Below, piece after piece: positions 21,620 to 62,682 of a DNA stretch of 64,000 nucleotides. The position numbers were made by a program, and so were the translations under genes. This DNA is from Vermamoeba vermiformis (Eukaryota). The notes beneath the pieces are model-generated. The model ran no database searches, was not told the origin of the DNA, and saw only the letters and a list, made by a program, of their open reading frames with translations. The stretch covers positions 124,001-188,000 of the forward strand of contig JBEWZL010000282.1 in the NCBI GenBank assembly GCA_045837725.1, written 5' to 3'. Positions within the stretch are counted from its first letter, which is position 1, and every line of letters starts with the position of its first letter.

Positions 21620-23412
21620 ATGGAACTGGACGGTGAGAAAGATACGAGAATAATAATTTGTAAATAACTTTTACATAATTTAATATCAAGTCCCCTCGCG
21701 ATATTAAAAATATTATTTAATCAGTATAATGTTATAATACTAATTGATTATTGCAGGCTTTGGAATTCTACCGGATGACCTTATGACATGGCTCGTCTTC
21801 AGTTCTGACTTAAAAACAGCTTCATCGATATTCGTATCGTGCAAATACTGGTATAATAAGTACAAGCATATTATTAATCACGATACTATTACTATAATCA
21901 ACAACGACTTGAATTTGAGTGAATTTCCAAAACTAACGACCATCAAAAATGGACGAGGTAAGCTGTATTATAGTCCTATTGCTATTATAATGTGGAAAAT
22001 TGGTACTAATCAAGAGTAAATATGTAGTAATTCGTTATGGCGATGGAATATTTTGGAGAGTTAAATCTGCATCAGCTTGCAAAACAACAATAGGACACGT
22101 CGATACTGTAGGCGAGCTAGCACAATTTATTCGTCAATTTGATTTATTACTGAAAGAGAAACTAAGCCCATCTTATGAACCGCCGTCGTCGTCTGTCCAG
22201 TACGATGGATTTTGGATGCGGATTCAAAACTCATCAAAAACGGAGTATTTCGCGTCTAGTGAGAGCAACGGAGTTGCTTATATGCACGATTATACAGCGA
22301 AGAGAATAATAAAGCTTATAGAAGACTTGAAAATAGTTAATAAGGATGTGCGATCAGATGAGGAAAGAATTATAGTTGAAATGTTTGAAAGGGACCCAAG
22401 CTATTTACGAGACACATTGTACTCTCATAAGTTTCAAATTAATAAGAGAGGCGACACCCTTATCGAATCTAGTTCAGGCGGATGTGGCCAAGAAGCAATT
22501 TTCATTAAAACTTCAGCAGAACTGTACAATGACCTTAAAGAGATTATAGTGCATGATAAACATAAGTCAAGCCGTAAAGAAATGGATAATTATAATGATA
22601 GCTCTTATTCTACCCGTCGAGTCTTTTTCGCGAGTTTGAATCTAAAAAATGAAAGTACGTACAAGCCTACAGAACTTCGAATAATGATACAATACTGATG
22701 ATTATATGCTAGAGTATTGGATTGTGGAGTACGAGGAGCTTAAGGAGGACAGTGGTACTGAAATGATAACAAAAACATTAGGAAGACGTCCGGATGTGGC
22801 TAAGCGATTAGCGAAGCTATTAGAGATTGGCATCTATGGTACTAAGAATATACAGAACCCTCATTTTAACCACAAAGAGATCAGAAGGCTGCCTCCTCCT
22901 CAATCAGTAATGTACGTCAAAAGCGTTCGAATCTGAATCTTGTACTAGATCCAACTAAGCCAGCTGCAATAGCCTTTTTTAGATGTCTAATGCATACATT
23001 ATTCTATAGGTATAATATAGCGAAGAGAATGCCGTATTGCATTGACTTGCATGGACTTCCAAGAACGTACCATATTGTAGTTCGCTTAAAGCGAAGACAA
23101 ACTGAAAATCTGATCCATATAGCAGCCCGTAATACTGGAATGGCGCCTATTGAAGAAGTATTGACACTATTTCACTTCGTGGAAACGCATCTGGATCCCG
23201 TTACAAATCATAAAACGAGCAGTTCTCACGTGCAGACAAAAAACCCTGCTTATCGAGTAGGAGTTACACCTAATGGATCAACGCCGTTGTTCATGCAGAT
23301 AGAGATAGAGTCCTTTTCAATTTTTAAGACGGTCACATCCGCTAGCAAAGAAGTTGTACACAAGATCTGGTCTTTCATTGAAAAATATCATAGCAATAAT
23401 ATTCCAGAATAG
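21620..23412 (+). CDS. F-box-like protein with unknown C-terminal domains (tandem paralog B)
   Basis: First exon MELD(G), then FGILPDDLMTWLVFSSDLKTASSIFVSCKYWYNKY. Shares GFWMRIQN.SKTEYF, LLEIGIYGTKNIQNPHFNHKE, HFVETHLDPV and IWSFIEKYHS with paralog A. Confidence 0.7.
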
Positions 23413-23433
23413 AATAAACGGCCGCTTACAGAT

Positions 23434-38700: not shown

Positions 38701-41700
38701 ACTTGAACGATCCTTCAAAGAACACAATCTCATTGCCAAGAGTGGAGACTGATGATGGTGCAACGAGTGAAAGAGCTGTGATCGAACGTATTGGTTATGA
38801 GTGGAGCAGTATTCGAAGACTTACCAGGACATTGAGCAGTCGCTGTTGCTTTGTTGGTGCAACTTGTTGCTCCTGTGGTGGCACAAGAGATTGATGACTG
38901 ACACCAGAAGCACTCTGGATGAAGTGCATTCAAGCACGTGCTGCATTGTGTCTCGGAGCAGTCTGTGAAAGACATCCAAGTTAGTACACAGCTCGTAATG
39001 GCCGAGGACGTCAAAAAATATACCGTAGATCTCAATTGCGTAGTCAGGAGTGATGCGATTGCCATTGTTGTCCCAAATACTCAGCTTGTGTGTTCCTGCT
39101 GTTAAGCTCGTAGGAACTGTGCACGTTATTTCTGTGGCATTAACGACAGTGCTCGTTGGTGAGAACACAGAGGCTGATGCACCGACTGGAACGTTCCACG
39201 CACATCGCCATTGTCCTTGAACACCGCTGAATGAGAACTTGCCAAGAACAGTTCTAGCGTTAAAGTATTGTTAGCAAGAACAGCGGTAATAAGCTGGCGG
39301 GGTGCTTTACTTACAAAGTGGTAGTGTCCCTGTCTTTCAGATGGAACCTTGGTGGCGTGACAGACGAGATTCCTATCGCAAGTTAGCTTGTAACAAAGTG
39401 CTAAGTCAAATACATACTGGGACACGAGCCAGAGGTGCTGCAAGTCGCGTTCTTATTGGCCGTGAACACACAAGAGGCTGATTCGAAACAGAAGGTGCAG
39501 TCTTGTTTGCGAGGAACAAGTGCATAAACATCTGTGCACGATGCACAATCGGTCTCGTACACTGTGCAGTCATAGAACATGAAAGCACTTGGCGATGAAG
39601 AAGCGTATGTGTTCGATCCAGCAAGCACTGTGACTTGCGTCTTGAGTTCAAGATTGGTGGTTCTGGAAGAGTTGAATACAGCTTGTGAAATGACAGGAGT
39701 TGTGACAGTGAGTTGTGTGGATGACACTCGTGTTGCTTGCATTGTTGATCCTGCTCCAAAGTTGACAGTGTATGATGCCACTGATGACGATACCACTGGT
39801 GACACTGTGATTGTCACTGTCTTTGCGGAGATAATGCCTGCACTGTCCGGTGTCATTGTCATCGCTGAGGAGGGGTCGTTAGTTAAACAGCAACTTTACG
39901 TAAACGGTACTTACTAGGGCATTGATTGTACCAGTCAGCCGAGCAGCTTGCTTTGCTGGCACACGAAGCAGTTGCATAACACCAGCCACAGTCAGGGTAT
40001 GTGTCTGACACGCATGAAGAGCAGCTTGCGACCGCATTGCACGCTAAGAAAGAGACGTAAGCTTCGTCAACGAAGCAAGTCATTTGGACCCTTACCATAG
40101 TAGTTAAAAGTGACAGAGTTCGGAGCCCAGTAGCCACTTCGATACCTGATCTTCACTTGAACTGCACGATTCGTTTCTATAAGGAATGTGTTACTATCTA
40201 TGTATCACTACAGCAACAACAAAGACTTACTTGGGCTGATCGCAGGAGTGACACATGTCACACTGTTGTATGTCACACTTTGGGCCGAGACTGTTGAAAC
40301 TCCAACGAACTCGCATTGAACATCTGATGCTGAGATCACTTGGCCGTTGAGAAGATACGAACTCAGTACGTTCACTGAAGTTCCTCCGTCTGCTGTTCCG
40401 CGATCGGGAGTGACGGAGTCGAGTGTTGGGCACGTATAACCGGTCTGCATCCAATCATTAACAGAGCACGAGCCAGAGTCTGTGCAGGTTCGCGATGATT
40501 GACAAAAACCGCTGATAGAACGTTAGGCTTTCAGTATCGTTAGCGGATAGGACTTACCAATAGGTCGAGTCCAAACTGCAGCTGGAGCAATCGAGCGTAC
40601 CACAATCTAAGAGACATTAGGCGACTAGCTTAACAAATAACAACACTTACCAAACATCTTTATGGCTCTGTAAGCTCCGTTGCTCGAGGGAAAGTACATC
40701 GTGTTGCCCGAGCTGAAACCGAGACCCAATTGGCCGATAGACGCTACGGGGCCAACGACTGAGAGGAGGCGATTTAGTACCTATTTAATACTGTTACATA
40801 AACACTACGTACCAAAGTAAGCGATGCTGCTCCATGAAGACAGCTGAACACGGAACACAGTTGTGTTAGAGAAGGTAGTGCCGCTAACGAAGAGAACTTG
40901 ATTCACAGAATCTACGAGCGAAAAGATTATGTCAGTCATAAGCCCGGCACCTGTAACATATATAATAGTAAGGTTACCAAAAACGGCACCAGTGAAGACC
41001 GTGTCAGGTTCCAAATATAGCCCTGTCAAAGAAAGCATGGTGGACGAAGCGGTAGTAAATGACACCTCGGACACAATTCCCGAGTCTGAAATGAGAATTG
41101 TGTTTCGCTTAACGGGATTATAGACCGCGTAGTTTTGCTAATAAAAAAGATTTAATTTTAATACTGCAAGTTTTTCCGTTTTTCAACTTACATTCCACGC
41201 GCCGAGTTTGCGAAATGAGGCGGTGTTAGCATCGGCGTTGCCTTTAACGCTAATAAGCCAGCCATCTCCACAAGAGAAAATAACCTGAAAAAGGTTAATC
41301 AGATCTGGTTTGCCAAGTTCTATTTTTACCTTGTCATTTTGGGTATCGTATACGACAGAAAACAATCGGTAAACGTTAGTATCACTCTGGCTTTGCTTTG
41401 GTACGATAGAGTTGCAGACTGGGGTTCCAGTTGCACCGTAGCAGAAAATAACTAGGGGACCCGACGCGATCCAAAGATAATCTCGCGAAGAATCGTAAGC
41501 GCAATTCTTGATCAAGTTAGTAATTATACAATTGTAGTGAGTAGACGTACGGGGACCAAAGGATAGTTATAGCTTGCCGTTCCCATTGACCAAGTGCCAG
41601 ATCCGGTTGCGGTAGCACCGCCAGCTGTCAACGTGTACGAGAAAAATTTCAGATTGCTAGTGATGACGACCACTACGAATATATAGTTTCATTATTAATA

Positions 41701-42230
41701 ACGTGTCACAAGCACGTGCTCAATTAATTCAAATTCAATCGTAAAATCAAAAAGGGGACTCATTGATAATATTTGCAAACCGCATTGTAACTTACGCTTA
41801 GCTTGACTCGACGATGTTTGGGCAATCGACATGCCAGTAATTTGACCACTTGTGGCGAGCTTGATAAACTGACTGAAGCCCGCAGATGGATTTGACGACT
41901 AAATGTTTTTTTTGTGGCCGTTATTACGAATCAATAATTGATATTAAATCAATATTTTTGCTTACTCTCACAATATTGCTGTCTCCTCCAATAAGATAAT
42001 ATGTAGTTCCTGAGATTGTGTAAGTTGCTGTTGCGGTAAGCGATCCGATTCCTGGATTAGCTGTTCCAACGTTCTAACGGTCATAAAATAGGTCAAAACT
42101 TTGTATAGTTAACGATAACGGAGCATTTAATGCAGTGACGTACCGCCATCCCGAGAGTCTGGCCCAATGTCAAAGTGACATAGCAGGTGACAAAAAGAAA
42201 GCCGAGTAGATTCGGTCGCCAAATCTTCAT
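35751..42230 (-). CDS. Plexin-like receptor RasGAP, copy 1 (SP, propeller-like head, [PSI-IPT]x6, PSI, TM, RasGAP)
   Basis: Signal peptide MKIWRPNLLGFLFVTCYVTLTLG/QTLGM. PSI motifs such as CSSCVSDTYPDCGWC. IPT motifs such as DSVTPDRGTADGGTSV and VVPDHGYIGGGETV. TM GVIAGSIVGAVVLAGAIVFAVLF followed by RWQRKRK. RasGAP motifs ENTLFRMNS, SGLLFLRFITPALTAP and KVLQNLAN. Confidence 0.9.
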
Positions 42231-42566
42231 CGGTGGTGCTTTCGTGTTTGTTGATTCAAAAAAATAAATAAACTGTTCGATTTGTTAAAAATGACATAAA
42301 ACGAAAAAATTTGCACAATGTGACACGTTATCAGGGAACGATCTGCATCTAGATCTGGATCCGAATAAATGTGTCAAATTAAAAACTTTCGATAGTGCAT
42401 AACAATGCATTGTTAATAATATCCAGTAGCAAATTCCGATTTGAAATTTTGAAGTATTGCATTTACCACGGTAAATAACGTTGCGAATCCAGTTCCAGAG
42501 TCGCGTTCTAAAAATACATCTAGACTAATCCTATGTGCCTTCCGCGTTAGCCATCATTGCGGTTGC

Positions 42567-45500
42567 TTAGCCCTTGGAAGCTTCGAGGTTCTTTTCCTTT
42601 CCTTTCTTGGGAGGCTCACCATACTTGGCAATAATATCGTTCAGCAAGCTGGTCATTGCTTGAGCTCGTTCTTCATCAGGCAAGCTTTGAAGCGCTGTTC
42701 GAAGTTTGGCTTCGTTTCTCACAATGTGAGTGTGCATCATTGCCAAACTGTTCAATCTGACATTCTCTGGAACAGAAAGCTCGAGTTTCATTTTCTGATT
42801 GAATGGTGTTGCTGGATTGAGAAGTGCAGCGTAAAGCTGTTTGATCTTGGGGATGTTGCGTTGCATGAAATCTTCGAAGTTTGTCATGAACTGTTCTTTG
42901 GCACCGAGTGTTGTCATATTGGCAAGATTCTGAAGTACTTTGCCAATCAGAACAAGTTGACGTTGTGCAACGGTATTAGGAGGATTGGGAAGAAGACCAT
43001 AGTAGTGAGGAGCGGTCAGCGCAGGAGTGATGAATCGAAGGAACAACAAGCCTCCGACTGCCTTCATGACAGCGTCATCAGAGCCGTACTTGTCCATGAT
43101 CGAGTAAGATATGCGTTGGAAGATCTGTCTGAACTCCATTGGCACTTTGTCACTGCCTGTTTTGATGACACTGAAGATCTTTTGACATGCTGCTGCAAGT
43201 TGGAACACGTTCTGATCGATATCAATGTTTGCATCTTTGATCTTTGATGGATCGACTTCCATCTCAAAGTTGAGAAGTGATGCTTTTTTGTCCTCGTCAT
43301 CATTTTGCTTTTCAGCAGCTTCAGCAGCGTTCTGAGCGACAGTGTTGAGTTCATTGATGACAAGAGCAAGAGTGAAGTACAAGTACTTTGTGCCAACTAC
43401 AAACGTGTCAGATCATGTCAAAAGTATGCAACTCGCAAAGAACTTACCGAGCTTTGAGTAGAACTTGAACATCTTGCTGCTCACTGAGTTCATTCTGAAC
43501 AGAGTGTTTTCTGTTGCTGAGGCGACAATTTCTTGAGTGGCAAAGAATTGGATCAGTTCAGCAGCACTTCCACGTGAGTGAGCCAAGTACACGCATGCCT
43601 TTGCGACTGGGTCAGTCTCAGTGGGTGCCGTGACAGAGAAGATGGTATTAAGGAAGGTCTTGTCTCTGTTTAACAAGATCTCTTCGAGCTCCCTGAAGTA
43701 AACATTGTTAGAGACGGACACGTGCCTTCAATCATTAACTAATACGCACTTGTAGTTGTCACGAGCATCGACTTTGTAGAGCAGTGAGAGGTCTCCTTGG
43801 TAAGCGACTTGCTCGTAGTCGGGTTCACTGATTTGTACGAGAAGTCCTTGTTTCTTCTTGCGTTGATAACGAACGAACAACACTGCGAACGCGATGGCAC
43901 CAGCAAGCACAACAGCACCAACAATCGTTCCGGCTACAACTCCCGCTAGACTGAACGCGCCTGCGCAGCTATCTGCTGAGAACTCTCCGCTGCATTGTGA
44001 CGAGACTGAGCATGTTTGTGCTGAGTTGACATTGCACCAGCCACATCCTTGCTTAGCAACGCATGCGTCGCAGGTAGTAATCGACGCGCAGTCAACGAAA
44101 ATGAATGTCTGGGGAGTTGTCAATGGTGTCGATGAAAAGTCAACAGTAAAGTCGAGTTGTCCTTCAACTGCAATTTTTGGAAGCTCACATTGAAGTGATG
44201 TGAAGTCATCTGAAGGTTGTGCAAGCACTGGTGACACTCCTTCGAATGAGCAGTAGAATGCATTGGATGAGGTCTGAAGCAATGACATGATGTCACGTTT
44301 CGCTGTGATCTCACTTGTGTTCGTCGTGCCAGTGAGAAGAGCAATTAGCTGTTCGTTCGATGACAACGGAGGATCAACAGCAATGGTGATGTTCTCGACG
44401 ATGCCGAGCTGGAAGTCGGACTGGCTTGGGGTGGCCGCTAAATAAGTGTTAGTGATGAGCTTGTTTGACCGAAGCACAACTTACCGAAACATTTATCGAG
44501 GAAAATATCAGTAGCATCTGAGCATTTAGATTGTGGGTGCTAAGTACGTATTAATGTTAGTAAGATTCGGCAAGTGCATGGAGACACGTACGCAAGCTGA
44601 CTTTGTCGCACACCAACCACAGAATCGTTGTTGCAAGCATTGATCTGAGCATGATTTGTCACCGAGCGTCAAGCAGTCTGATGAATAAATACATTGATTA
44701 GATCATGCGTAAGGGAGAGGCAGTGTGAGCGTACCGTAGAATAAGAAGCTGAGTGAGTCCCAAGGAATGTACGGTTGTGCTCCAACGTTGACACTCAGTG
44801 ACACGTTGCCGATGAGGTTTCCACGGAGAGGTGTCGTGCACGTCAAAGAGTTTCCTATAGCACTATTAGCCCATTTCTTGCGGCCACGCCAATGACTTAC
44901 CGTCACCAGAAGGAGTGCCGGGACCAGCGTCAGTTGAGAAGACGCAAGAGTAAATGAGATCTTCACCTGAGTCACCTTTTGAGGGGAACGGGCCACCATA
45001 TACAACCACTGTCTCGCCTCCACCAATGTAGCCGTGATCGGGAACGACGTAGCTCAATGCTAAGAAATAGGTGTGAAAACAGCTCTAAGTATAGAGAAGA
45101 CCTATTAATCCTTACAAGGGCAAGTCGTAACCTCAGATTGGCATGAGAAGCCACACGAGCCAGTTGCACACCATTTGCACATTGGTCGAGACACTGACAA
45201 GCACTCGAGACAGTTGCCTTTCACTTGTGTGCAATCTGATAAACATAACGTTAGGACTTGACTCTGACAACATCAGTTATGATTGCCACGTACCGTAGAA
45301 CTCAAACGGAAGTGAGTCAGTGTACTTATTGCCGTTCACTGCAATGTACACAAAGGTGTCATTGGTTCCTGATTGATAGCCTGTTGGAGTAAGGCACGCA
45401 ATGCCAGTTTCTGTAACGTTCGTAGCTACGACTCGAGTGGTTGTGTTCTGGACGAACGCGCACTCCACCGTGTTCACTCCCGTCGATTGATTGAACTTGA

Positions 45501-48500
45501 ACGATCCTTCAAAGAACACAATCTCATTGCCAAGAGTGGAGACTGATGATGGTGCAACGAGTGACAAAGCTGGGATCGAATGTATTAGCGACAAGTCGTG
45601 CATTATTCGGACAAAGACGTACCAGGGCATTGAGCAGTCACTGTTGCTTTGTTGGTGCATGTTGTGGCTCCTGTGGTGGCACAAGAGATTGATGACTGAC
45701 ACCAAAAGCACTCTGGATGAAGTGCATTCAAGCACGTGCTGCATTGCGTCTCGGAACAGTCTGTGAAACATATCCAAGTTAGAACTCAGCTCGCAATGAC
45801 CGAGGACATTAAAAATATTACCGTAGATCTCAATTGCGTAGTCAGGGGTGATGCGATTGCCATTGTTGTCCCAGATGCTCAGCTTGTGTGTTCCTGCAGT
45901 TAAGCTCGTAGGAATTGTGCACGTTATTTCAGTGGCATTAATGACAGTGCTCGTTGGTGAGAACACAGAGGCTGATGCACCGACTGGAACATTCCACGCA
46001 CATCGCCATTGTCCTTGAACACCGCTGAATGAGAACTTGCCAAGGACAGTTCTAGCATTAAAGTATCGTTAGTTGCTGTAAAAAACAACAATGACTTACA
46101 AAGTGGTGGTATCTCGGTTGTTAAGGTGGAACGAAGGCGGTGTGACGCTCGATATTCCTGGGAAGTAAGCGTCAGGTACAGCAAATCGCCGCTTGTAGCA
46201 TATACATACTTGGACACGAGCCAGAGGTACTGCATGCGACAGGTTTGTTGGCTGTGAACACACAAGAGGCTGAGTCGAAACAGAACGTGCAATCTTGTTT
46301 GCGAGGAACAAGTGCATAAACATCTGTGCACGATGCACAATCGGTCTCGTACACTGTGCAATCATAGAACATGAAGGCACTTGGCGATGAAGTAGCGTAT
46401 GTGTTCGATCCAGCAAGTACTGTGACTTGTGTATTCAATTCAAGACTTGTCAATCTAGAAGAATTGAATACAGCTTGTGAGATGACAGGAGTTGTGACAG
46501 TGAGTTGTGTGGATGACACTCGTGTTGCTTGCATTGTTGATCCTGCGCCAAAGTTGACAGTGTATGATGCCACTGATGATGATACCACTGGTGACACTGT
46601 GATTGTCACTGTCTTTGCGGAGATGATGCCTGCACTGTCAGGTGACAGCGTCAATGAAGGACATTGTTGGTACCAGTCTGCTGCGCATCCCAATCTGCTC
46701 GAGCACGAAGCAGTTGCATAACACCATCCACAGTCAGGATATGTGTCCGACACGCACGAAGAGCAGCTACTAACAGCGTTGCAAGCTGACAAACATGTGA
46801 GTGAGTTGAAGGTTCTTCAATTCGTTGCTTACCGTAGTAGTTGAAAGTGACACTGTTTGGTGCCCAGTAGCCACTTCGATATTTGATCTTCACATCAACT
46901 GCACGATTTGTCTCTATTACCACGCGTTAGTATCTCATGTGGTCATACAGATGTATATAACAAGGACTTACTTGGGCTGATTGCAGGAGTGACACATGTC
47001 ACACTGTTGTACGTGACACTTTGGGCAGGAACTGTGGACACTCCAACGAACTCGCACTGCACGTCTGATGCTGAGATCGGTACACCGTTGAGCAGATAAG
47101 AGCTTAGAATGTTCACCGTAGTTCCTCCGTCAGCTGTTCCACGGTTCGGAGTGACGGAGTCAAGTGTTGGGCACGTGTAACCGGTCTGCATCCAATCATT
47201 AACAGAGCACGAGCCAGAGTCTGTGCACGTGCGTGATGATTGACAGAAGCCACTATTGACCATTAGCACCGTATAATACAAACACCTTTAACGTACCAAT
47301 AAGTGGAATCGAGAACACAAGTTGTACAGTCTGCTTGGCTGCAGTCTACATTACGTTAGTAATGCACGTGCCTCAGTAAAGAAATAAACTTACCGAACAT
47401 TTTTACAGCTCGGATAGTGCCGTTAGACGAAGGATAGATGAGGTTAATTGAGGAGATCAAACCATTGCCGAGTTGACCAATGGTCGAGACAGGGCCAAGA
47501 ACTGTAATTGTGTTGGTTAGTTAAAAGTACACGGTTGTCTTCTAACACTTACTGAGAGATGCAATCCGAGTCCAAGACGCGGTCTGTACTCTAAATACGG
47601 AGGTGTTGGTGTTCGACACGGTGCCGCTAACAAACAGCACTTGTTTGGACGCATCTAACGCTATGTTAGCGATCTGGTGTTAATTTTTGAGGTTAATTAC
47701 GTACCAAATATAGCACCGGTGAATGACGCGTCGGGTTCTAAATAAATTCCTGATAGTGTTAACGAACCAGTACCACTAACATATGAAACCTGTAGAAGGC
47801 TTAGAACGCAGATCCAAAAATAATAATTATTTTTTTAATTAATTACCTCTGACACTATTCCTGCGTCGGAGACAAACATGGTTGTCTTCTTGGTTGGATT
47901 ATAAATTCCATTATTTTGCTAAAAATAATAAATATTATTTGCGACTCATACGGAAATTTGTTTCAACATACATTCCACGCGCCGAGTTTCTTTGCGGTTC
48001 CTGCATCGTCTAATGTTTCACTTCCAGATCTAAAGAAAACAATGTACCCGTCTGTGCATCCAAAGATGACCTGACGAAGACTGTTAGGAAATAAAAATGT
48101 TGCGCGATCGGGCCTTACCAAATTATTGCCATTGTCGATAACCACAGAAAGAGGCTTTGGGTTTGCATAATTGTACCAAAACTGTTTTTTCTTGACGTCG
48201 GTGTTAGAGGTCGTAAATATCTGTTTGATAGACAAAGCATTGATGTTAACAGTAAACCAGACGTAATCCGTTCCCAGATCGTACACGCACTAATATTGGT
48301 TAGCTAGCTGCTACATATATGATATAGTCACTTACTTGTGCAGCGGCGTTGAACCCATTAGACCAGTCGGGGTAAAATGTAATCGTTTTAAAGATCGAGT
48401 AAGACGTTCCCGATAAGTTAATCGCGTAAACAATATTTGCCGACGTGCACACGATCACTAATGATAAAAATGTTAGTCAGATCAAGTATAATTAATAAAA

Positions 48501-49006
48501 AGCGCTTTTGGCTAGTAGTAGACCGAGGGACTGGTCCCCTCACGGGAAATTTCAACAATCGGTCTACTTACGCCTTGCTTGGGTATCCGAAGTCTGAGCC
48601 ACCGACATGCTCGTCACTTTGTTGCCAGAGCTGAAACTGATAAAAGTCGTGTACGCGCCGAGAGGATCAGATGTAGATGACTATAAATAATTAACCGTAT
48701 ATCAACAAATATACATAAATCAAGATTAAAAATATGTTCACGTACTCGGTATACTTTATTATCACCTCCGAAAAGGTAATAAGTTACTCCTGAAACTGTG
48801 TAAGAAACTGGCGAAGAGATCGACGACGCAGTTTGAAGGCTTTTAGAGCCCACAGCCTGATTAAATTACATGCGCTTAGTGACATATTATATCTTGCCTT
48901 TATCAAATTTACTGAAACTTACGGCCATGCCAAGTGTTTGAGCAGATGCCAGACTGATCAGCGCGGAATAAGCCAACAAGGCGCTAAGGATTAGTACCGG
49001 CTTCAT
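42567..49006 (-). CDS. Plexin-like receptor RasGAP, copy 2
   Basis: Signal peptide MKPVLILSALLAYSALISLASA/QTLGM. Same domain order as copy 1. GAP exon is ORF 42567..43382. Confidence 0.9.
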
Positions 49007-49356
49007 CTTTTATTGCTGACAGTTTGTAATCACAATGAGAAATAAAATTATTCGGCTCCGAACCAATTAATGGGTACATGTCAGTTGTCATAACTGTCAG
49101 CCAAGATCTGAACACAAACAGCGGGCTTACCTTGGTACTTAAGTCTGCTGATTAACCGCTTCACCAAGCTATTATATCCAGCTTACGGCTTCATTTGATT
49201 TGCTTTGCCGATCAAATTTTGGTGGCACGGATTTCCGTCGCAAGATCAACTGTTTTAAACAGTTTATCTGATAAAAATACACGATTCTATTGCAAATATA
49301 ATATAATATAACAGCTTACTGCGTTCAAAGGCGATCGACGCAATCTTTGTATCATT

Positions 49357-52300
49357 CTAGGCCTTGGAGGTCTCGAGGTTCTTTTCCTTTCCTTTCTTGG
49401 GAGGCTCACCGTACTGTACCAACAAGTCATTGAGCATGCCAGTCATCGCTTGAGCTCGTTCTTCATCAGGCAAGCTTTGAAGCGCTGTTCGAAGTTTGGC
49501 TTCATTTCTCACAATGTGAGTGTGCATCATTGCCAAACTGTTCAATCTGACGTTCTCTGGAACAGAAAGCTCGAGTTTCATCTTTTGATTGAACGGTGTT
49601 GCTGGATCAAGGAGAGTGCCGTAGAGTTGCTTCATCTTGGGGATATTACGGTGCATGAAGTCTTCGAAGTTTGTCATGAACTGTTCTTTGGCTCCGAGCG
49701 TGGACATATTAGCCAAGTTTTGCAGCACCTTGCCGATCAGAACGAGTTGACGTTGGGCAACGGTATTAGGAGGTGAGGGCAGCAGACCGTAGTAGTGAGG
49801 AGCAGTCAACGCAGGAGTGATGAATCGAAGGAACAACAAGCCTCCGACTGCCTTCATGACTGCATCTTCAGAGCCATATCGATCCATGATGGAGTAAGAG
49901 ATGCGTTGGAAGATTTGTCTGAACTCCATTGGCACTTTGTCACTGCCTGTCTTGATGACACTGAAGATCTTTTGACATGCTGCTGCAAGTTGGAACACGT
50001 TCTGATCGATATCAATGTTTGCATCCTTGATCTTTGATGGATCGACCTCCATTTCAAAGTTGAGGAGTGATGCTTTCTTGTCATCGTCATCGTTTAACTT
50101 TTCAGCAGCTTCAGCAGCATTCTGAGCGACAGTGTTGAGTTCATTGATGACAAGAGCAAGAGTGAAGTACAAGTACTTTGTGCCCACTACCAATGTGTCA
50201 GAGATACGTTAAAGTATGTCACGCGCAAAGTACTTACCGAGCTTTGAGTAGAATTTGAACATCTTGCTGCTCACTGAGTTCATTCTGAACAGAGTGTTTT
50301 CTGTTGCTGAGGCCATGACCTCTTGAGTGGCAAAGAACTGAATGAGCTCCGCTGCTGTTCCGCGCGAGTGAGCCAAGTACACGCAAGCTTTTGCGACTGG
50401 ATCGGTCTCAGTGGGTGCTGTGATTGCAAAAATCGTGCTCAAGAATGTCTTGTCTCTGTTCAACAAGATCTCTTCGAGCTCCCTGTTTGACGTTGTTAGC
50501 TGACTTTCGGATTAAGACGAGGCACTTACTTGTAGTTGTCACGAGCGTCAATCTTGTATTGTAAAGAAAGGTCTCCTTGGTAAGCAACTTGTTCATAATC
50601 CGGCTCACGGATCTGAATGAGAAGTCCTTGTTTCTTCTTGCGTTGATAACGAACGAACAACACTGCGAACGCGATTGCACCAGCAAGCACAACAGCACCA
50701 ACAATTGATCCTGCAATCACTCCTGGAAGACTGAATGCACCTGAGCAGCTGTCTTGAGTGAACTCTCCGCTGCATTGTGACGAGACTGAGCATGTTTGAA
50801 CCGCATTGACATTGCACCAACCGCATCCTTGCTTTGCAAGACAAGTGTCACATGTGGTAATTGACTCGCAGTCTGTTATCAAATCTAAGAAATTGCTCTG
50901 AGAGCCATTGGTATCGAGATTACTTACCGACAAAGGTGAATGTCTGCGGAGTTGTCAAAGGAGTGTCGGCGAAGTCAACAGTGAAGTCGAGTTGTCCTTC
51001 AACTGCAATTTTTGGAAGTTCACATTGAAGTGATGTGAAGTCATCTGAAGGTTGTGCAAGCACTGGTGACACGCCTTCGAATGAGCAGTAGAATGCATTC
51101 GATGAGGTCTGAAGCAATGACATGATGTCACGTTTCGCTGTGATCTCGCTTGTGTTCGTCGTGCCAGTGAGAAGAGCGATGAGTTGTTCGTTCGATGACA
51201 ATGGAGGATCAACAGCAATGGTGATGTTCTCAACGATGCCGAGCTGGAAGTCTGCTTGACTTGGAGTGACAGCTATTCAAGCTTAGTTAGAATTTACGGT
51301 TTGCCCGAACTATATTAAGCCTTACCAAAACACTTCTCGAGGAAGATATCACTCGGGCCTGAGCACTCAGATTGTGGACGCTTTAAAAAAAAATCGTCAG
51401 AACCGTTGCCAAGTTAAATACAGTAATATCAAACGTACACAAGCTGACTTTGTTGCACACCAGCCGCAGAATCGTTGTTGCAAGCATTGGTTCGAGCATG
51501 ATCTGTCGCTCAATGTCAAGCAGTCTAGATAATCAGATATAGTTAGGACTAACACATTACTATTACAGTATCAGCGTACCGTAGAACAAGAAGCTAAGTG
51601 AGTCCCAAGGAATGTACGGTTGTGCTCCGATATTGATGCTCAACGAGACGTTGCCGATGAGATTGCCACGAAGAGGTGTGGTGCATGTGATGTACGTTCC
51701 TAGTAGTCGTTAGTGTGTTGGCCGAAAAAGTTGTCAAAGCTTACCGTCTTCAGAGGGTGTACCAGGACCAGCGACTGACGAGAAGACGCAAGAGTAAATG
51801 AGGTCTTCACCTGAGTCACCTTTTGACGGGAACGGGCCACCATATACAATCACTGTCTCGCCTCCACCAATATAGCCGTGATCTGGCTCCACATGACTCA
51901 ACGCTGGTATTCCATGTTAGCTATTGACCGTGACAAGATTACTGGATATGTACTTACAAGGACAAGTAGTAACTTCAGATTGGCACGAGAAGCCACACGA
52001 GCCAGTTGCACACCATTTGCACATTGGTCGAGACACTGACAAGCACTCGAGACAGTTGCCTTTCACTTGTGTGCAATCTGATAAAAGACGCTGTTAGGAC
52101 CTGACTTCGACAACATCAGTTCTGATTGCTGCGTACCGTAGAACTCGAACGGAATAGAATTGGTGTACTTGTTGCCGTTCACTGAGACATAGACAAAGGT
52201 ATCATTTGAGCTCGAGTGATGAGTTCCAGCTGGTGATACGCACGTGATTCCAGTGTCGGTGAAATTTGCAGCAGTGACAGTGAAGGTCGTGTTTTGAACG

Positions 52301-55300
52301 AAGACGCAGGCCACTGAGCTGACAGAGGCTTCAGAAAATCTGAACGTGCCTTCCAAGAACACTATCTCGCCTCCTATTGTCGATACAGAAGCCGGCGCGG
52401 CCATCGACAAAGCTATCAGAGTGATTAGCTACGCGTTACTAATCAAGTGTTCAATGCGACTTACTAGGACATTGACCGTTCGTTGAAGTAGTGCATGACG
52501 TCGTTCCAGTGGTACCACAAGACACTGTTGATTGACACCAGAAGCACTCTGGGCGTTGAGGGTTCACGCACGTGCTGCATTGGGTCTCGGAACAGTCTGT
52601 GGAAGATATCCAAGTTAGCACACAGATCGGTTAATGACCGATTGCTTTTGATGACACGTGTCAAATGCCGTACCATAGATCTCGACGGGGAAGTCAGGAG
52701 TAATACGTTTGTTGTTCTCCCAGATACTCAACTGATGTGTTCCTGCTTGCAAAGTGTTTGGAACATTACAGCTAATCTCCGTAGCATTTACGACTGTGCT
52801 CGACGGCGAGAAAGCACCAGTTGCTGGTGTTGTACCCACTGCAACATTCCATGCACATCTCCAGCTTCCTGCAAGACCGCTGAATGAGAACCTACCCAAG
52901 ACCGTCCTTGATGTGACATTAGATAAGAGAAGAAGCGGAGCAATTGTTATAGTAGGATGACTTACAAAGTAGTGGTGTCGCGATTGCGAAGGTGGAACGT
53001 TGGTGGAGTAACACTCGAAATTTCTGTTCGTAGTTTAGTGATTGACTTAAAACGATTGTGAGCTCGTAGTGTATACGTACTTGGACACGAGCCAGCCGTG
53101 TTGCAAGAAGAGGTCTGGTTAGCAGTAAAGATACAAGACGCCGAGTCGAAGCAGAAGGTGCAGTCTTGTTTGCGTCTGTCCGTCACATAGACGTCCGTGC
53201 ATGACGCGCAGTCCGTTTGGTATATTGTGCAGTCATAGAACATGAAGGCACCTGAGTCTGAGGTTGCGTATGTTTTGGATCCAGCAAGTACAGTGACTTG
53301 TGTATTCAGCTCAAGACTTGTCAATCTGGAAGAGTTGAATACAGCTTGTGAGATGACAGGCGTTGTGACAGTGAGTTGTGTGGATGACACTCGTGTTGCT
53401 TGCATTGTTGATCCTGCGCCAAAGTTGACAGTGTATGATGCCACTGATGATGATACCACTGGTGACACTGTGATTGTCACTGTCTTTGCGGAGATAATAC
53501 CTGCACTGTCAGGTGACAGCGTCAATGAAGGACATTGTTGGTACCAATCGGCAGTGCAACTGGATTGACTGGCACACGAAGCAGTTGCGTAACACCAGCC
53601 ACAGTCAGGGTACGTGTTTGATGTGCAAGACGAGCATGAACTCACTGCAGTGCAAGCTAAATACGGATTAAGTTAGATAAGGGATCAAAACTTGAATGTT
53701 ACGTACTGTAGTACTCAAAGCTCACTGAGTTTGGTGCCCAGTAGCCGTTGCGGTACTTGATCTTCACTTCAACGATACGATTTTGCTCTGCGCTGATGTT
53801 AGTTATCTGGTGTAAAAGGTCAATGAACGACATACGTGAGGGCAATGAAGGAGTGACACACGTGACACTGTTGTACGTCACACTTTGTGCGCGTACTGTA
53901 GCGATACCAACGAACTCGCACTGCACGTCGGATGCTGAGATAGGCTGACTGTTGAGGAGGTACGAGCTCAACACCATGACGGTTGTGCCACCATCCGCGC
54001 TGCCTCGAGTAGGTGTGATGGAGTCCAAGAAGGGGCACGTGTAGCCTGTTTGAATCCAATCCACAGGTGCGCAGTTTGTTTGGTCCGTGCACGTTCTAGA
54101 AGATTGACAGAAGCCGCTGATTGGCTCAGCATTAGTTCGCTGCACATGAACCCTAAATTTAGGTGCATTCTTACCAGTAAGTCGAGTCGAGGGCGCAAGT
54201 GGTGCAGTTTGATTGCGAACAGTCTATAAATAAGTGTCAATAAGAAGACTTGAAATGACGTGCGATGACTCATCGTACCAAACATTTTGAAAACCTGGAG
54301 TTGTCCGTTGTCAGAAGGGAAGAACATGTTGGAGCCAGATATGAAACCAAAGCCCAACATTCCGATAGACGTCGTCGGACCGACAGCTGCAAGACAAAAT
54401 TAGACGGGACTTTTGGTTCCGTGGTTTCTATGGGCCTTACTTAATGAGGCTATGCTGCTCCAAGTAGCTAACTGAACTCTGAATATCGTTGTGTCCACAG
54501 AGTTAACTACACCGCTGACGAACAGAGTTTGCTTTGCCGAGTCTAAGTAACAGGACGAAATGTTACATTACGAGATTTAATCAAAAGTGACACTTTGACA
54601 CGTGTCATGACGAGAATTTTCTTACCCAACACTGCACCAGTAAATGATGTGTCAGCTTCTAAATAAATACCAGTGAGAGATAAGGTTCCACTTGAGCCAA
54701 AAGCGACCTGAAAACACTAGTTAACACAACGCTTGGTGAGATCGGAGAGAAATCCGACTTACTTCTGAAACAATGCCGGCGTCAGATACAAATATCATTG
54801 ATTTTTTTGGAGAGTTGTAAATTCCATAGTTTTGCTACAGAAATAACGTTAGTCGGTTTGAAAGTAAAAATAAAGCTGGGACATACGTTCCACGCGCCAA
54901 GTTTTCTGGAAGTAGAACTACCAAAACCGCTACTTTCAGAGCGGAATATCAAGAAGTACCCATCTGAGAGACCGTAGACAATCTATATAAAAGCTTTCAG
55001 CAACTAGTTTTGATAAATATGCTCGTTACTTACGCGCTTGGTGACAGGCTCATAAACAACGGAGAAAGCCTTGTAACCACCGCTTAATGAGGTTCTGGTA
55101 TTATCGAAGTTTGAATCGGTAAAGGGTCTTCGAACTTGAACGATGTGATAGTAAGATGCGATCCACAAATACTCCGTATTCACATCGTAATAGCAAACCT
55201 AAAGAATTAGATTGTGAATAAAATCAAAATAAGATATTTATACGTACTGGATTGATAGTAACCGACCCTGATGGAGTGTTTGTTGTCCAACTGTGATACC

Positions 55301-55888
55301 TATTTAGGTAAGTCACGCTCGAGCCCGACAAAGTGTAGAAATAGGCTCTAAGGCTTGTAGAGGATGTGGCAACGCAAACGGCGACTGAATAGAATTACGC
55401 ATTATATCACAATGTATTAAATTTAATACGCAGTGGAATTTCTGCACCAGATTTGTGAACTTACGTCGTGCTTGCGAGGGATCAGACAGTTGTCCAATGG
55501 CCATGCTTGTAACTCTACTACCTGCAGGTAGAGTACTAATGAAGGTTGTATAGGTCCCACTCGGATCGCTCGACTTTACAACATTTATCGTTAGGTTGAT
55601 CTGTGTTTCAAATTGAAATTGATTACTCACGCGAAGAACAACATTACTACCGCCCAATAAGTAATAAGTTGTGCCAGAAGTCGTATAAGTTGCCGTTGGA
55701 GCCAAGGGACCGATTTGTTTGTTGCTCGCGGATACGCTCTGATCCATAAATTTCAATTAGCAAGTATTAGCGTAATTATTTTTCATTATTAAAATGCTTA
55801 CACTCATTCCAAGTGTTTGGCCGACAGCCAAGCTGGCGCAGTATGCGGCGAAAAGAGCGCCGAAAAGATTTTTCGACCATCTCCCCAT
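49357..55888 (-). CDS. Plexin-like receptor RasGAP, copy 3
   Basis: Signal peptide MGRWSKNLFGALFAAYCASLAVG/QTLGM. Same domain order. GAP exon is ORF 49357..50193. Confidence 0.9.
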
Positions 55889-56202
55889 CGTGGGATCAAA
55901 ACTTCTGATCGAGATGTGGTCTCCTATTAGTGGGATGTGTTAAATAACAAAAATCCACTCACAGTCGTGTTATGTTGTGTGAATCGATGGACGACGTTGT
56001 GAGTCAATTTCTGGACATCACACTGTCATTCAATTTTGACTTCGCAGAACATCGAAGTCGCACTATCATTTGTGACCGGAACTATGACACCAAAACTTCA
56101 TGTAACGTTGATTTATTAAAAGTACACTACAAATGTTGAAGTTAAAATACATCGTGGGACAAGACAAAAACGTACTTGTTGCAATTTTAGCCCTTTGAGG
56201 CC

Positions 56203-59200
56203 TCAAGGTTCTTTCAAACATTTAGGTTGGAGGTTCTTTTCCTTTCCTTTCTTGGGAGGCTCGCCGTACTTGGCAATGACATCGTTCAGCAAGCTGGTCA
56301 TCGCTTGAGCTTGCTCTTCGGGCAGACTTTGCAAGGCATTTCGAATCTTAGTCTCGTTTCTCACAATGTGAGTGTGCATCATTGCCAAACTGTTCAATCT
56401 CACATTCTCTGGAACAGATAGCTCGAGTTTCATTTTCTGATTGAACGGTGTTGCTGGATCAAGAAGAGTGGCATACAACTGTCGCATCTTGGGGATGTTG
56501 CGTTGCATGAAGTCTTCGAAGTTTGTCATGAACTGTTCTTTGGCTCCGAGTGTTGTCATGTTGGCGAGGCTCTGAAGTACTTTGCCAATCAGAACAAGTT
56601 GACGTTGGGCAACTGTGTTGGGAGGATTGGGAAGAAGACCATAGTAGTGAGGAGCAGTCAACGCAGGAGTGATGAATCGAAGGAACAACAAGCCTCCGAC
56701 GGCCTTCATGACAGCGTCATCAGAGCCGTATCTATCCATAATAGAGTAAGAGATGCGTTGGAAGATTTGTCTGAACTCCATTGGCACTTTGTCACTGCCT
56801 GTTTTGATGACACTGAAGATCTTTTGACATGCCGCTGCAAGTTGGAACACATTCTGATCGATATCGATGTTTGCGTCTTTGATCTTTGATGGATCGACCT
56901 CCATTTCGAAGTTGAGAAGTGATGCCTTCTTGTCATCGTCGTCGTTCAGCTTTTCAGCAGCTTCAGCAGCATTCTGAGCGACAGTATTGAGTTCGTTGAT
57001 GACAAGAGCAAGAGTGAAGTACAAGTACTTTGTGCCAACTACGAACGTGTCAGATCATGTCAAAACTACATCACTCGCAAAGAACTTACCGAGCTTTGAG
57101 TAGAACTTGAACATCTTGCTGCTCACCGAGTTCGTTCTGAACAGAGTGTTCTCGGTTGCTGATACCATGATCTCTTGTGCGGCGAAGAACTGGATCAGTT
57201 CGGCGGCATTTCCGTGTGAGTGAGCCAAGTACACGCATGCCTTTGCGACTGGATCAGTCTCAGTGGGTGCTGTGACAGAGAAGATGGTACTGAGGAAAGT
57301 CTTGTCTCTGTTCAACAAGATCTCTTCGAGCTCCCTGAAGTAAAGATTGTTAGAAACTGACGTTAGAAATCGAGTATTATCTAATACGCACTTGTAGTTG
57401 TCGCGAGCATCGACTTTGTAGAGCAATGAGAGGTCTCCTTGGTATGCAACTTGTTCATAGTCTGGTTCGCGGATTTGAACCAACAAGCCTTGCTGTTTCT
57501 TGCGCTGATATCTGACGAAAAGAACAGCGAATACAGCGGCACCAGCAAGCACAACAGCACCAACAATCGATCCTGCAATCACTCCAGGAAGACTGAACGC
57601 TCCTGAGCAGCTGTCTTGAGTAAACTCTCCGCTGCATTGTGACGAGACTGAGCAGCTTTGAACCGCATTGACATTGCACCAGCCGCATCCTGTCTTAGCA
57701 ATGCATGCATCGCACGTTTTGACTGATGCACAATCTATGCCATATTAGTTAACTCCACTCGAAAGCATAAGAGGTACATACCAACAAAAGTAAAGGTTTG
57801 TGGGGTTGTTAGTGGTGTTGATGAGAAGTCAACAGTGAAAGCGAGTTGACTTTCAACTGAGACTTTCGGTAAAGCACACTGGAGCGAGGCATAGTCAGAT
57901 GAAGGTTGTGCCAACACAGGTTCGACTCCCTCAAAGCTGCAGTAGAAGGAATTTTTTGACGAAGCCAAGAGCGAGACGATGTCGCGCTTGGTGACCGTTT
58001 GATTGCTAGGGGCCGACAACAATGTCAAGAGTTGCTCGTTTGAAGTGAGAGGAGGATCAACAGTAACTGTGATGTTCTCAACAACGCCGAGTTGGAACGC
58101 CGATTCGCTCGGGGTAGCAGCTGTTACATGTTAATTAAAAGATCAACTGAGCACTTGACATTGATACGTACCAAAGCACTGCTCGAGGAAGATGTCCGTG
58201 GCTCCAGCACACTTCGACGCGGGTCTCTGTATTCGTGCGTTAGCAATACTACTCATACTACTGATGGCAAATATTAACATACGCAAGACGAGGAAGTCGC
58301 ACACCAGCCGCAGAATCGTTGTTGCAAGCATTGACCCGAGCATGACGTGTCACTCAGTGTCAAGCAATCTGTTGAATAAATGTATTGATTAGATCATGTG
58401 TAAGCGAGAAGCACTGTGAACGTGTTAACGTACCGTAGAACAAGAAGTTGAGAGCGTCCCAAGGAATGTACGACTGTGCTCCCACGCTTACGGTCAACGA
58501 GACGTTACCAATCAAGTTACCGCCCGATGGCGTCGTGCAAGCCAAAGAAGTGCCTAGGACATCTTAGCTTGCCGTTACGCACAATTAATAGACTTACCAT
58601 CATCAGAGGGTGTTCCAGAACCTGCATCATTAGCGAAGACGCACGTGTAAATGAGGTCTTCGCCTGAGTCACCCTTTGCTGGGAAAGGTCCACCATAGAT
58701 CACAACTGTCTCGCCTCCGCCAATGTAGCCGTGATCTGGCTCCACATAGCTCAACGCTGGTATATATGTTAGATAAGCCATCACGCCTCAACATAGATTG
58801 CCTGTCGGCACTTACTAGGACACGTGGTAACTTCGGATTGGCATGAGTAGCCACACGAGCCAGTTGCACACCATTTGCACATTGGTCGAGACACTGACAA
58901 GCACTCAAGACAGTTGCCTTGAACCGCAGTACAATCTGTGTTATTGTTAGAGGGGGTGAAGAACAAACGATATGAAGTACGCACCGTAGAACTCAAACGG
59001 AAGTGAGTTAGTGTACTGGTTGCCGTTCACTGTAACGTACACAAAAGTGTCGTTGGATCCTGATTGATAGCCGGTTGGAGAGGTACAGGCAATGCCGGTG
59101 TCCGTGTAATTTGCAGCGGTAACGATAGTTGTGGTATTTTGTACGAAGGCACAGCCAATGTTAGTTGCGGTCGAGCCACTGAACTTAAACGTTCCTTCGA

Positions 59201-62200
59201 AGAAAACTACTTCGCTGCCTAGTGTTGACACGGAAGATGGTGCGACGAGCGATAACGCTGTTAACAGTTAGTAAAAGATCTTTAGACATAATAAACGACA
59301 TACTAGGACATTGGGCAACAGCGTTCGTTGAAGTGGTGCATGTCGTCGTTCCAGTAGTACCACAAGACACTGTTGACTGACACCAGAAGCACTCTGGATG
59401 AAGTGCATTCAAGCACGTGCTGCATTGTGTCTCGGAGCAGTCTACAATAAATACGTGTTAATGTACTGCATGTTATACGAGTCGTATTCGCAATACCATA
59501 GATCTCAATGGGATAGTCAGGAGTGATGCGATTGTTATTTCTGTCCCAAATGCTCAGTTGATGGGTTCCTGTCTGCAAGCTGCTCGGAATTGTGCAGTTG
59601 ATCTGCGTAGCATTCACGACAGTGCTGACAGTCGAGTTGAGCGTTGGTGTTGCTCCGACAGGAACGTTCCACGAGCAGTGCCAATCTCCTGCTAGACCAT
59701 TGAATGAGAACTTGCCCGTGACAACCCTATCAATTGCGTTAGTTATACATTGGAACGAGTACATTGCAACTTACAATGTCGTTGTGTCTCGATTCTTGAT
59801 GTGTAAGGACGAAGGAGTGACCGATGAAATGCCTACACCAATGATTAGCGACGCGCACGAACCGGATGTTTGACTTACGTGGGCAAGAGCCGGATGTGCA
59901 CGCTGCAGTCTTATTGGCAGTAAAAATACATGATGCAATGTCAAAGCAGAACGTGCAGTCTTGCTTTCGTACTCTAGTAGCATAAACGTCCGTGCACGAC
60001 GCGCAATCGGTCTCGTACACAGTGCAGTCATAGAACATGAAGGCACCTGTGTCTGAGGTTGCGTATGTGCTCGTGCCAGCAAGCACTGTGACTTGTGTAT
60101 TCAGTTCAAGATTGGTGCCTCTAGCAGTGTTGAACGAAGTCTGCGAGATGACAGGAGTTGTGACAGTGAGTTGTGTGGATGACACTCGTGTTGCTTGCAT
60201 TGTTGATCCTGCTCCAAAGTTGACAGTGTATGATGCCACTGATGATGATACCACTGGTGACACTGTGATTGTCACTGTCTTTGCGGAGATGATACCTGCA
60301 CTGTCAGGTGACAGCGTCAATGAAGGACATTGTTGGTACCAATCGGCAGTGCAGCTTGACTTGCTCGAGCACGAAGCAGTTGCGTAACACCAGCCACAGT
60401 CAGGGTATGTATCTGACACGCATGAAGAGCAGCTACTAACAGCGTTGCAAGCTGACGAGCCCGTTAGTGAGCTTAAGTTACTCTCATTCATTGCTTACCG
60501 TAGTAATTGAAAGTGACACTGTTTGGTGCCCAGTAGCCACTTCGGTACTTAATCTTAACTTCGACTGCGCGGTTTGTTTCTATTATAAAGCACATTAGTA
60601 TCTCAGTGGTAGTACAGTGACGACAAAGACTTACTTGGGCTGATTCCAGGAGTGACACATGTCACACTGTTGTACGTCACACTTTGGGCCGAGACTGTTG
60701 AAACTCCAACGAACTCGCATTGAACATCTGATGCTGAGATAACTTGGCCGTTGAGAAGATACGAACTCAGTACGTTCACTGAAGTTCCTCCGTCAGCTGT
60801 TCCACGGTTCGGAGTGATTGAATCGAGCACTGGACACGTGTACCCTGTTTGAGCCCAATCACTAACAGAGCACGAGCCAGAGTCTGTGCACGTTCTCGTT
60901 GATTGACAAAAGCCGCTATTTGACTGGTTAGCATTTATCGCACAATACATTGCTCTACATACCAGTAGGTAGTATCTTGCGTGCAAGCGTTACAATCCCA
61001 GCCAGAGCAATCTGCAAGGAACTGTTAGATACGACTACGAACCAATGATCATGCGCGTACCAAACATTTTGATAGCTCGGAAAACGCTGGTGTTGGAAGG
61101 GAAAAACATATTGTTTCCAGAAATAAAGCCCATTCCTAGTTGACCGATAGTACTGGCACTTCCCACGGCTAAAATTATCAATTAATTAATAAAAGTTGGA
61201 AATCAATTCATTACGGCGGCTTACTTAAATAGGCAACGCTGCTCCATGAAGCTATTTGAACTCTGTATACGCTAGTATTGGTTCCAACGAATCCGCTGAC
61301 GAACAAAACTTGGTTTGCCGAGTCTAATAATGAAAAGTCAATACATCTGCTGTGCACGAGCATGTCCACATACCAATGATAGCGCCCGTAAAAGTGACAT
61401 CGGACTCCAGATATATTCCGGTCAACGATAAAGCGTTCGTCGATGGATTAAAGGTCACCTGTTATCAAAACTTTAGCCTCGATCCCGATGCGTTTCGGAA
61501 ACTTTACCTCCGAAACAATACCAATATCAGATATAAACAATGAAGTGGCCTTCAAGGGATTGTATAGCGTGTATAATTGCTGTTGCAGGAAACGTTAGTT
61601 CTGGGTTGGTTGGTTTTTTTGTAGTCAAAAACGTACACTCCACGCGCCCAATTTTTTGTACACTTCGTCGCCGAAAGTTAGACCGCTAGGATATCCGACT
61701 AAATAGCCGCTAGTGCAGCCGATTAAGACCTACTGAGTTACATGGTGAGACCTTGTAAATTCATAATAGTATGGTTACGTACGATGTCATTTGTGTTGTC
61801 GTAAACAACGGAAACCATTTCATTAACAAATCCCTTAGGAGGACCAGTCGGCGCTGCAAAAGTGTTTTTTGGATTTGCTGTTGACGCAGCAGTAATTCTG
61901 CCAATAACACCGCCGTTCGCGACCCAAACATAGTCTCGAGAATAATCGTAGGCGCAAACCTAGCAGTTTTTAATATTAATGTACCTTATAAATATGATGC
62001 ACTTACTGGCGTAAATCCACCGGTTGGGTTGGTCCAAGTAAAGTTTTTAGGTGAAAAGCTGAAGCCGCTCGAACTGAGATTGATCATAAACAGAGCTTTG
62101 TTCATCGTGCACACGGCAACTGAATAGAAAATTAGACACTTGCTAGTATTATGCCGGCATATATAATGTTTGCGGAGTTAAAAATTATTGGCGGTGAGCG

Positions 62201-62682
62201 TTGGATTTTTTGGTTTTTTGAGAACTTACCCCGCGCGTTGGCCGAGTCAATTTGATAGACAGACATGCTCGTAATCATGTTATTGCTTGGTAATGTAATG
62301 AACGTGCTGAAAGAGCTGGAAGTAAGAGGCGTAGTTGACTTTCAGAAAAATGTTAGTGGATGTCATTCTACTGCGAGATTCTGAACCGCTAAATTATAGT
62401 ATTTTGTTTAATTAGACTTACCCTGGCAATCTTGCTATCACCTCCGTAAAGATAATAAGTTGTGCCTGAGATGGAATAGGTTGCAGTTACACTCGTGGCG
62501 CCGATAGCCAAGTTACCGGATGCAACATTCTGGTAAATATTAGATTAACATACACCGCCCATCATTTAACAAATTTAAAAATTAGTATCACTTACAGCCA
62601 TGCCGAGTGTTTGGCCGAACGTCAGACTCACACAGTAAGCCGCGAGAAAGATCCCGATAAGATTGACAAGTGCAACTCCCAT
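56203..62682 (-). CDS. Plexin-like receptor RasGAP, copy 4
   Basis: Signal peptide MGVALVNLIGIFLAAYCVSLTFG/QTLGM. Same domain order. GAP exon is ORF 56203..57024, with an altered C-terminus (LQPKCLKEP). Confidence 0.9.

Follow-up and report, generated by a model that had tools for sequence, protein, structure and literature searches.

The 64-kb window (the whole stretch of 64,000 nucleotides from Vermamoeba vermiformis analysed here) raises the question of how neighbouring receptor genes came to combine near-invariant GAP domains with strongly divergent N-terminal heads, and whether this contrast marks a diversifying recognition receptor, as the original prediction proposed. Self-comparison of the window revealed four units of about 6.8 kb, arranged in tandem on the minus strand and alignable at the DNA level everywhere except in the first 1.7 kb of each. 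The gene models A–D, obtained with a splice-aware script followed by homology-based correction, are all intact, and their introns (44–123 nt) are all GT-AG. In gene C, 8 head introns out of 10 and one stalk intron are confirmed by spliced contigs from run X7, among the 15 of 56 joints listed. Each encoded protein begins with a signal peptide and a head of some 330 aa, continues with a stalk in which PSI-like modules alternate with IPT modules, and ends with a single membrane span followed by a RasGAP; the stalk introns are mostly in phase 1 and coincide with module borders. Pfam analysis of the ortholog P0026 returned PSI, TIG, and RasGAP above the cut-off, and the closest named proteins to the array are those of Vermamoeba vermiformis, with 92–95% in the GAP. 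The upper head limits predicted from the letters coincide with the start codons of the four genes (ATG at 42230, 49006, 55888, and 62682), and the lower ones fall only a few bases from the intron acceptors that precede the first PSI exon (40607, 47346, 54224, and 61012). The features of the array are as follows:

35751..42230, minus strand: gene A, 1683 aa, 25 introns, intact
42567..49006, minus strand: gene B, 1684 aa, 25 introns, intact
49357..55888, minus strand: gene C, 1684 aa, 26 introns, intact
56203..62682, minus strand: gene D, 1678 aa, 26 introns, intact, final residues differ
40652..42161, minus strand: head A (aa 24-352), predicted seven-bladed propeller, blades 2-4 at 41207-41859; ortholog P0051 (76%)
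47395..48940, minus strand: head B (aa 23-354), blades 2-4 at 47987-48635; partial ortholog P0001 (67-68%)
54280..55819, minus strand: head C (aa 24-355), blades 2-4 at 54902-55531; ortholog P0026 (75%)
61062..62613, minus strand: head D (aa 24-350), blades 2-4 at 61652-62293; distant ortholog not found
37131..40651, minus strand: stalk A, PSI-like modules alternating with IPT
43944..47394, minus strand: stalk B
50724..54279, minus strand: stalk C, first IPT also less converted
57586..61061, minus strand: stalk D
35751..37130, minus strand: transmembrane stretch, juxtamembrane part, and unsplit RasGAP of A (TLFRMNS, LFLRFITPA, GKVLQNLAN)
42567..43943, minus strand: transmembrane stretch through RasGAP of B
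49357..50723, minus strand: transmembrane stretch through RasGAP of C
56203..57585, minus strand: transmembrane stretch through RasGAP of D (TLFRTNS)

Small structural differences were observed among the copies. Gene A lacks one head intron (41137-40978) and one stalk intron (~38100) present in B, C, and D, and has an extra intron at 39914-39865 that is absent from these three; gene B lacks the intron ahead of the last PSI (~44100). At the end of gene D (~56185-56235), about 25 additional bases, seen by eye, change the frame of the final codons; the tail typical of the other copies, again by eye, sits just beyond the gene's end in another frame. Elsewhere in the window, the neighbours at 4680-35500 are TRP-like, WW domain, SacI-like, tubulin-tyrosine-ligase-like, and RRM/RWD genes. 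This region also includes a local duplication (19350-21010 and 21738-23419, pieces 69–83% identical), for which the frames scanned gave no Pfam match. No tRNA or Rfam match was found in the 64-kb window.

The contrast between divergent heads and near-invariant GAPs is real. Among the four paralogs, pairwise protein identity is 43–49% in the heads, 77–87% in the stalks, and 93–94% in the GAPs, and invariant columns make up 89 of 314 ungapped columns in the heads, 613 of 901 in the stalk, and 299 of 340 ungapped columns in the GAP. The GAPs indeed differ at few residues (20–25 of about 341 per pair), and the stalk, with about 900 residues, is intermediate in identity and mosaic. The conserved islands reported for the heads are present as named. 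The segments between them had been described as barely alignable, which holds for columns 105–219 (12 of 89 ungapped columns invariant) and not elsewhere, as the heads align end to end once their 9–10 introns are removed, with 54–57% identity in the C-terminal half.

At the nucleotide level, the paralog pairs have a pS of 0.77–0.83 and a pN of 0.35–0.40 in the heads, where silent sites are saturated; 314 of 450 fourfold sites in head exons differ, against a saturation expectation of 0.74. The stalk shows a dS of 0.54–1.14 with dN/dS of 0.14–0.16, and the GAP a dS of 0.42–0.68 with dN/dS of 0.07–0.08, the body being much younger than the heads. Head divergence is therefore matched by saturated synonymous divergence, which, together with conversion in the body, speaks against the diversifying receptor originally proposed. 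Positive selection as the source of the hypervariability is unmeasurable between these paralogs, and early or site-limited positive selection in the heads could be hidden because dS is saturated. Head and body have similar GC contents at fourfold positions (0.35–0.46), so a GC-biased conversion signature is uninformative here.

None of the 57 head intron pairs and 17 of the 90 body intron pairs exceed 70% identity, and the longest identical run is 11–23 nt in the heads and up to 134 nt in the body. A run-length permutation test was significant in 6/6 pairs for the body (p 0.0005) and in 0/6 for the head, the pairs not being independent. Informative sites in the body change topology in blocks, those in the heads cluster weakly (p 0.016), and conversion tracts are confined to stalk and GAP. 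Since the body is patchy, with identical runs and block switching, and the heads lack these features, the stalk/GAP mosaic likely reflects gene conversion that spares the head. The border between the two is gradual: PSI1 is near saturation and, in gene C, the first IPT is also less converted. Across 18 body exons, homogenisation declines as exons become shorter (rho -0.58, p 0.013, pairs not independent). Exon length as the sole cause of head divergence was ruled out because short body exons are still homogenised, with fourfold differences at only 240 of 605 sites (0.40) compared with 0.70 in the heads. Short exons contribute to low homogenisation but do not suffice. Judged from these alignments, the heads are old paralog types kept outside gene conversion, like those of protocadherin clusters.

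An AlphaFold2 model of the P0026 head with PSI1, computed from 13 sequences, predicts a compact seven-bladed propeller (pLDDT 79, pTM 0.83, lower in the N-terminal third), and the best fold matches are seven-bladed propellers with Z of about 30. No Sema or plexin chain is among the listed fold matches, a result with which kinship is still compatible. With blades assigned from the strand list of this model, paralog identity is 50, 32, 23, 30, 61, 61, and 49% for blades 1–7, and 49% in strands, 41% in top loops, and 27% in bottom loops. The variation would thus occupy a sector (blades 2–4) and not one face, with the top loops of blades 5–7 retaining LGAW, DxG, ExD, and IGxLG. Orthologs are also fastest in blades 2–4 (57–86% vs 75–93% in blades 5–6). 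Mapping of the variable residues on the predicted propeller, suggested at the outset as a check, does reveal clustering in blades 2–4; however, the bottom loops exceed the top loops in variation, and the pattern fits fixed different specificities and relaxed constraint equally well. In the Echinamoeba family member P0009, residues 77–155, ahead of the propeller, give a weak SUEL lectin match below the cut-off, which may hint at glycan ligands.

Head types were also compared with those of relatives. Head C shares 75% with P0026 (72% in the N-terminal half and 81% in the other), compared with 82% in the stalk and 96% in the GAP, and head B shares 67–68% with the partial P0001. Head A shares 76% with P0051, which matches the other heads at 43–47%, the range of cross-type whole-head identity. 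For head D, a distant ortholog was not found. The head tree supports C with P0026 (99/100), B with P0001 (100/99), and C203 with P0002 (96/91), and places A close to P0051 in a fork without support. The bodies of P0001 and P0026 are identical to each other, and both proteins may be assembly chimeras.

Pieces from other samples were compared under conditions in which alleles less than 80% alike would be missed. Among the 16 of 195 pieces listed, X7 differs from head C at 1, 0, and 0 positions in 163, 139, and 109 nt, and X5 from head D at 6/353, 5/387, and 5/291 and from head B at 19/346; body pieces differ at 15/371 to 49/837. In distant-strain RNA (X21, X23), the bodies are covered and the heads hardly so, at 80% likeness. 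A metagenome scan yielded two loci, none with a head. A word search with the head found nothing, one with the full family was dominated by bacterial IPT proteins, and an Atlas search with the head returned solely unnamed clusters below 0.9. In a more distant relative (L031, 1-2435), the stalk end at position A is 66–68% identical to D, B, and C vs 57% to A. Downstream synteny with the array is kept in L031 and L032.

Genome G000 contains at least seven further loci with a PSI/IPT stalk and a GAP among the 13 stretches examined. These are C298, C77 (two genes, head to head), C101, C203, C35, and C221 (L033-L036, L039-L041), and all seven genes combine a PSI/IPT stalk with a membrane span and a RasGAP; P0033 is a near relative of C101, and P0002 of C203. 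Related RasGAPs in C306, C30, C84, and C302 (L037, L038, L042, L043), whose upstream part is unmatched to the PSI/IPT stalk, are possibly receptor GAPs with other ectodomains. A dispersed sister subfamily (C203, C35, and C221) presents the same pattern as the array, with a head pS of 0.77–0.78 and a body pS of 0.47–0.55 after masking of 52 badly modelled columns. The flanks of C35 and C221 are collinear with 92–94% identity, and the two are probably an allele pair. Long collinear stretches with 92–96% identity occur in C35/C221 and C306/C30, suggesting that the assembly contains both haplotypes in places.

In this sister-subfamily pair, and not in the array itself, the heads differ at 17 codons, 17/17 of them silent (15 with a stricter mask) and 7 in a stretch roughly matching blades 2–4. 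Silent diversity rises from head (0.065) to stalk (0.155) to tail (0.248), the low head value being the expectation if conversion brings variation only to the body; the replacement deficit of head vs stalk is not significant alone (p 0.22). Allelic polymorphism of the Tgr type was seen neither in this pair nor in the near-identical head pieces of two other samples, and kin recognition receives no support.

Taken together, we consider it fairly probable that the locus encodes four intact tandem plexin-like receptors with old, separately kept propeller heads and a stalk/RasGAP mosaic from likely conversion, each head likely having its own fixed binding specificity and feeding a shared Ras-family off-switch. 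The originally suggested scheme of different heads with one output survives insofar as the types persist across strains and differ in blades 2–4; different ligands per head are likely, going by the comparisons and the model. A neutral escape from conversion would explain the heads differently: with ten short introns and low constraint, they would have crossed the divergence threshold for conversion early and drifted, leaving four receptors with the same job. This is compatible with saturated dS, with pN far under pS, with the correlation between body exon length and homogenisation, and with fast blades 2–4 in orthologs and bottom loops that vary most. We nevertheless regard it as unlikely, since short body exons are still homogenised (0.40 vs 0.70), the same boundary recurs in the dispersed sister subfamily, head types are retained across strains, and 0/17 allele differences in that subfamily, including the 7 roughly in blades 2–4, alter a head residue.

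Ongoing diversifying selection, with the heads serving as polymorphic self/non-self tags similar to TgrB1/TgrC1, appears very improbable. Near-identity of the X7 and X5 head pieces with the window (16 of 195 pieces listed; alleles below 80% missed), the silent-only head differences of the sister-subfamily allele pair, four intact genes with no fragments, and the downstream synteny kept in L031 all argue against it, even though the protein is a surface receptor with IPT repeats, the orthologous N-terminal head halves (72%) are less alike than the stalk (82%), and the X21 and X23 RNA covers bodies and hardly heads at 80% likeness.

If the four heads are separately kept types with fixed specificities, selection would eliminate any conversion tract extending into head sequence; exclusion from conversion, as seen in the heads, is expected when distinct functions are selected for (PMC3966226, in the part available). 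Ligands, whether prey or surface molecules or partner proteins, may contact blades 2–4, across the ring from the stalk attachment. The plexin GAP is switched on by dimerisation, according to the accessible part of PMC8011033, and by analogy ligand binding would cluster the receptors and turn the GAP on. The active GAP could then lower local Ras/Rap activity, with less adhesion, pseudopod, or feeding-cup formation; in Dictyostelium, RasGAPs control macropinosomes (PMC11187982, excerpt). The array may represent a receptor-GAP route for amoeba sensing of prey or surfaces.

The layout of the array proteins is that of plexins: a signal peptide, a seven-bladed propeller, a PSI/IPT stalk, one membrane span, and a RasGAP tail. 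The number of IPT modules, six as counted by eye, is also that of plexins, and one hydrophobic stretch followed by basic residues was read from the sequence in 4/4 proteins. The PSI and IPT stalk is homologous to the plexin stalk, as indicated by Pfam PSI/TIG and by a 32-sequence family profile whose match to plexin ectodomains is colinear and begins at the last Sema blades (Plexin-A4 394-781, E 7e-50). The same profile matches semaphorins weakly (1e-5) and, through its tail, NF1, SynGAP, and p120GAP (E 1e-46 to 1e-39), and it matched no plexin cytoplasmic chain at E 0.001. Profiles including PSI1 match the last Sema blades and PSI of plexins and semaphorins, and a head-only profile matched WD40-type and other propellers only. 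With stalk and tail, the nearest Atlas clusters are plexins (0.83, a lead only).

The differences concern head, stalk order, and tail. The Sema domain comprises about 500 aa with an extrusion in blade 5 (PMC10084454, in part), whereas the array head (327–332 aa, longest loop 14 alignment columns, 5c-5d loop 5–7 residues) has neither this size nor the extrusion. No Pfam Sema match was obtained in the head. Searches of G000 with PF01403, for a semaphorin ligand in the same organism, and with PF08337 were blank, as were their controls. Plexin stalks follow the order PSI-IPT three times and then IPT three times; array stalks instead have a PSI-like module before every IPT, with PSI-like motifs (six by pattern, a seventh by eye) alternating with the six IPT modules. 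The plexin RasGAP is split by a Rho-binding domain, whereas the array GAP is unsplit, lacks this insert, and is nearest to NF1/SynGAP/p120GAP; in the tail, Pfam matched only PF00616 and neither Plexin_cytopl nor RBD. By sequence, these proteins share the plexin layout yet are not plexins by definition, because the head lacks the Sema size and extrusion and the GAP lacks the Rho-binding insert.

PF00616 scores 93.8 bits on P0026 (cut-off 28.3). In alignment with neurofibromin, the catalytic motifs FRxNS, FLRFxxPA, and KxLQxxAN are kept in 4/4 array genes. A continuous GAP domain with these motifs is shared with the neurofibromin, SynGAP, and p120 RasGAPs; in the array, by contrast, it is fused to a membrane-spanning segment and an extensive ectodomain. 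The family also occurs in Echinamoeba exundans, a member of Tubulinea, and in Soliformovum irregulare, with many further members, and spans Tubulinea and Evosea, two amoebozoan phyla. Among the 33 profile matches scanned, 15 carry a RasGAP with PSI or TIG. A GAP tree of 34 rows, plexin GAPs not among them, contains a 26-row clade with Vermamoeba and Echinamoeba proteins (98/97) and no supported join between this clade and the Soliformovum group.

Plexins are a Choanozoa feature in the available text of PMC6374515, where amoebae are not mentioned; array receptors occur in Amoebozoa, and plexins in animals and choanoflagellates (Plexin-1 in the latter). In the accessible portion of a preprint on amoebozoan integrins (10.1101/2020.04.29.069435), plexin is named only within PSI, and no description of an amoebal plexin-like RasGAP receptor was found among the titles and opening lines of abstracts listed from the open-access literature. 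The plexin layout in two amoebozoan phyla implies that this layout arose much earlier, or else that a plexin-type ectodomain was fused independently to a RasGAP. We tentatively entertain, with more doubt than conviction, an ancestral "proto-plexin": the propeller-PSI/IPT-membrane-RasGAP layout would predate the divergence between amoebae and the lineage of animals and fungi, plexins would have gained the Sema enlargement and the Rho-binding insert, and amoebae would have built fixed-specificity heads on a conversion-homogenised chassis.

According to part of PMC12745789, Tgr recognition works through TIG domains, with alleles that are extremely polymorphic and a locus that is unstable; the array proteins resemble Dictyostelium TgrB1/TgrC1 as amoebozoan membrane proteins with TIG/IPT (same source), present here by Pfam. 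In contrast to Tgr, the IPT stalk of the array is homogenised, the propeller is divergent, and head alleles look conserved; extreme within-species polymorphism was not seen in the few samples compared, in which divergent alleles could be missed. As for locus instability, the four genes are intact with no fragments and downstream synteny extends to L031/L032, a single full array having been seen. A parallel in design is offered by clustered protocadherins and RHD/RHCE, in which conversion homogenises part of the gene and the specificity part is spared under selection (PMC3966226, citing Noonan 2004 and Innan 2003, in the section available). These are likewise tandem surface receptors with one part homogenised and the specificity-bearing part spared (PMC3966226, same section), but the proteins are unrelated, and the array consists of four whole genes with their own tails, an enzyme output, and no shared constant exons. 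The array is a clean unicellular example of receptor heads that stay distinct in the face of gene conversion.
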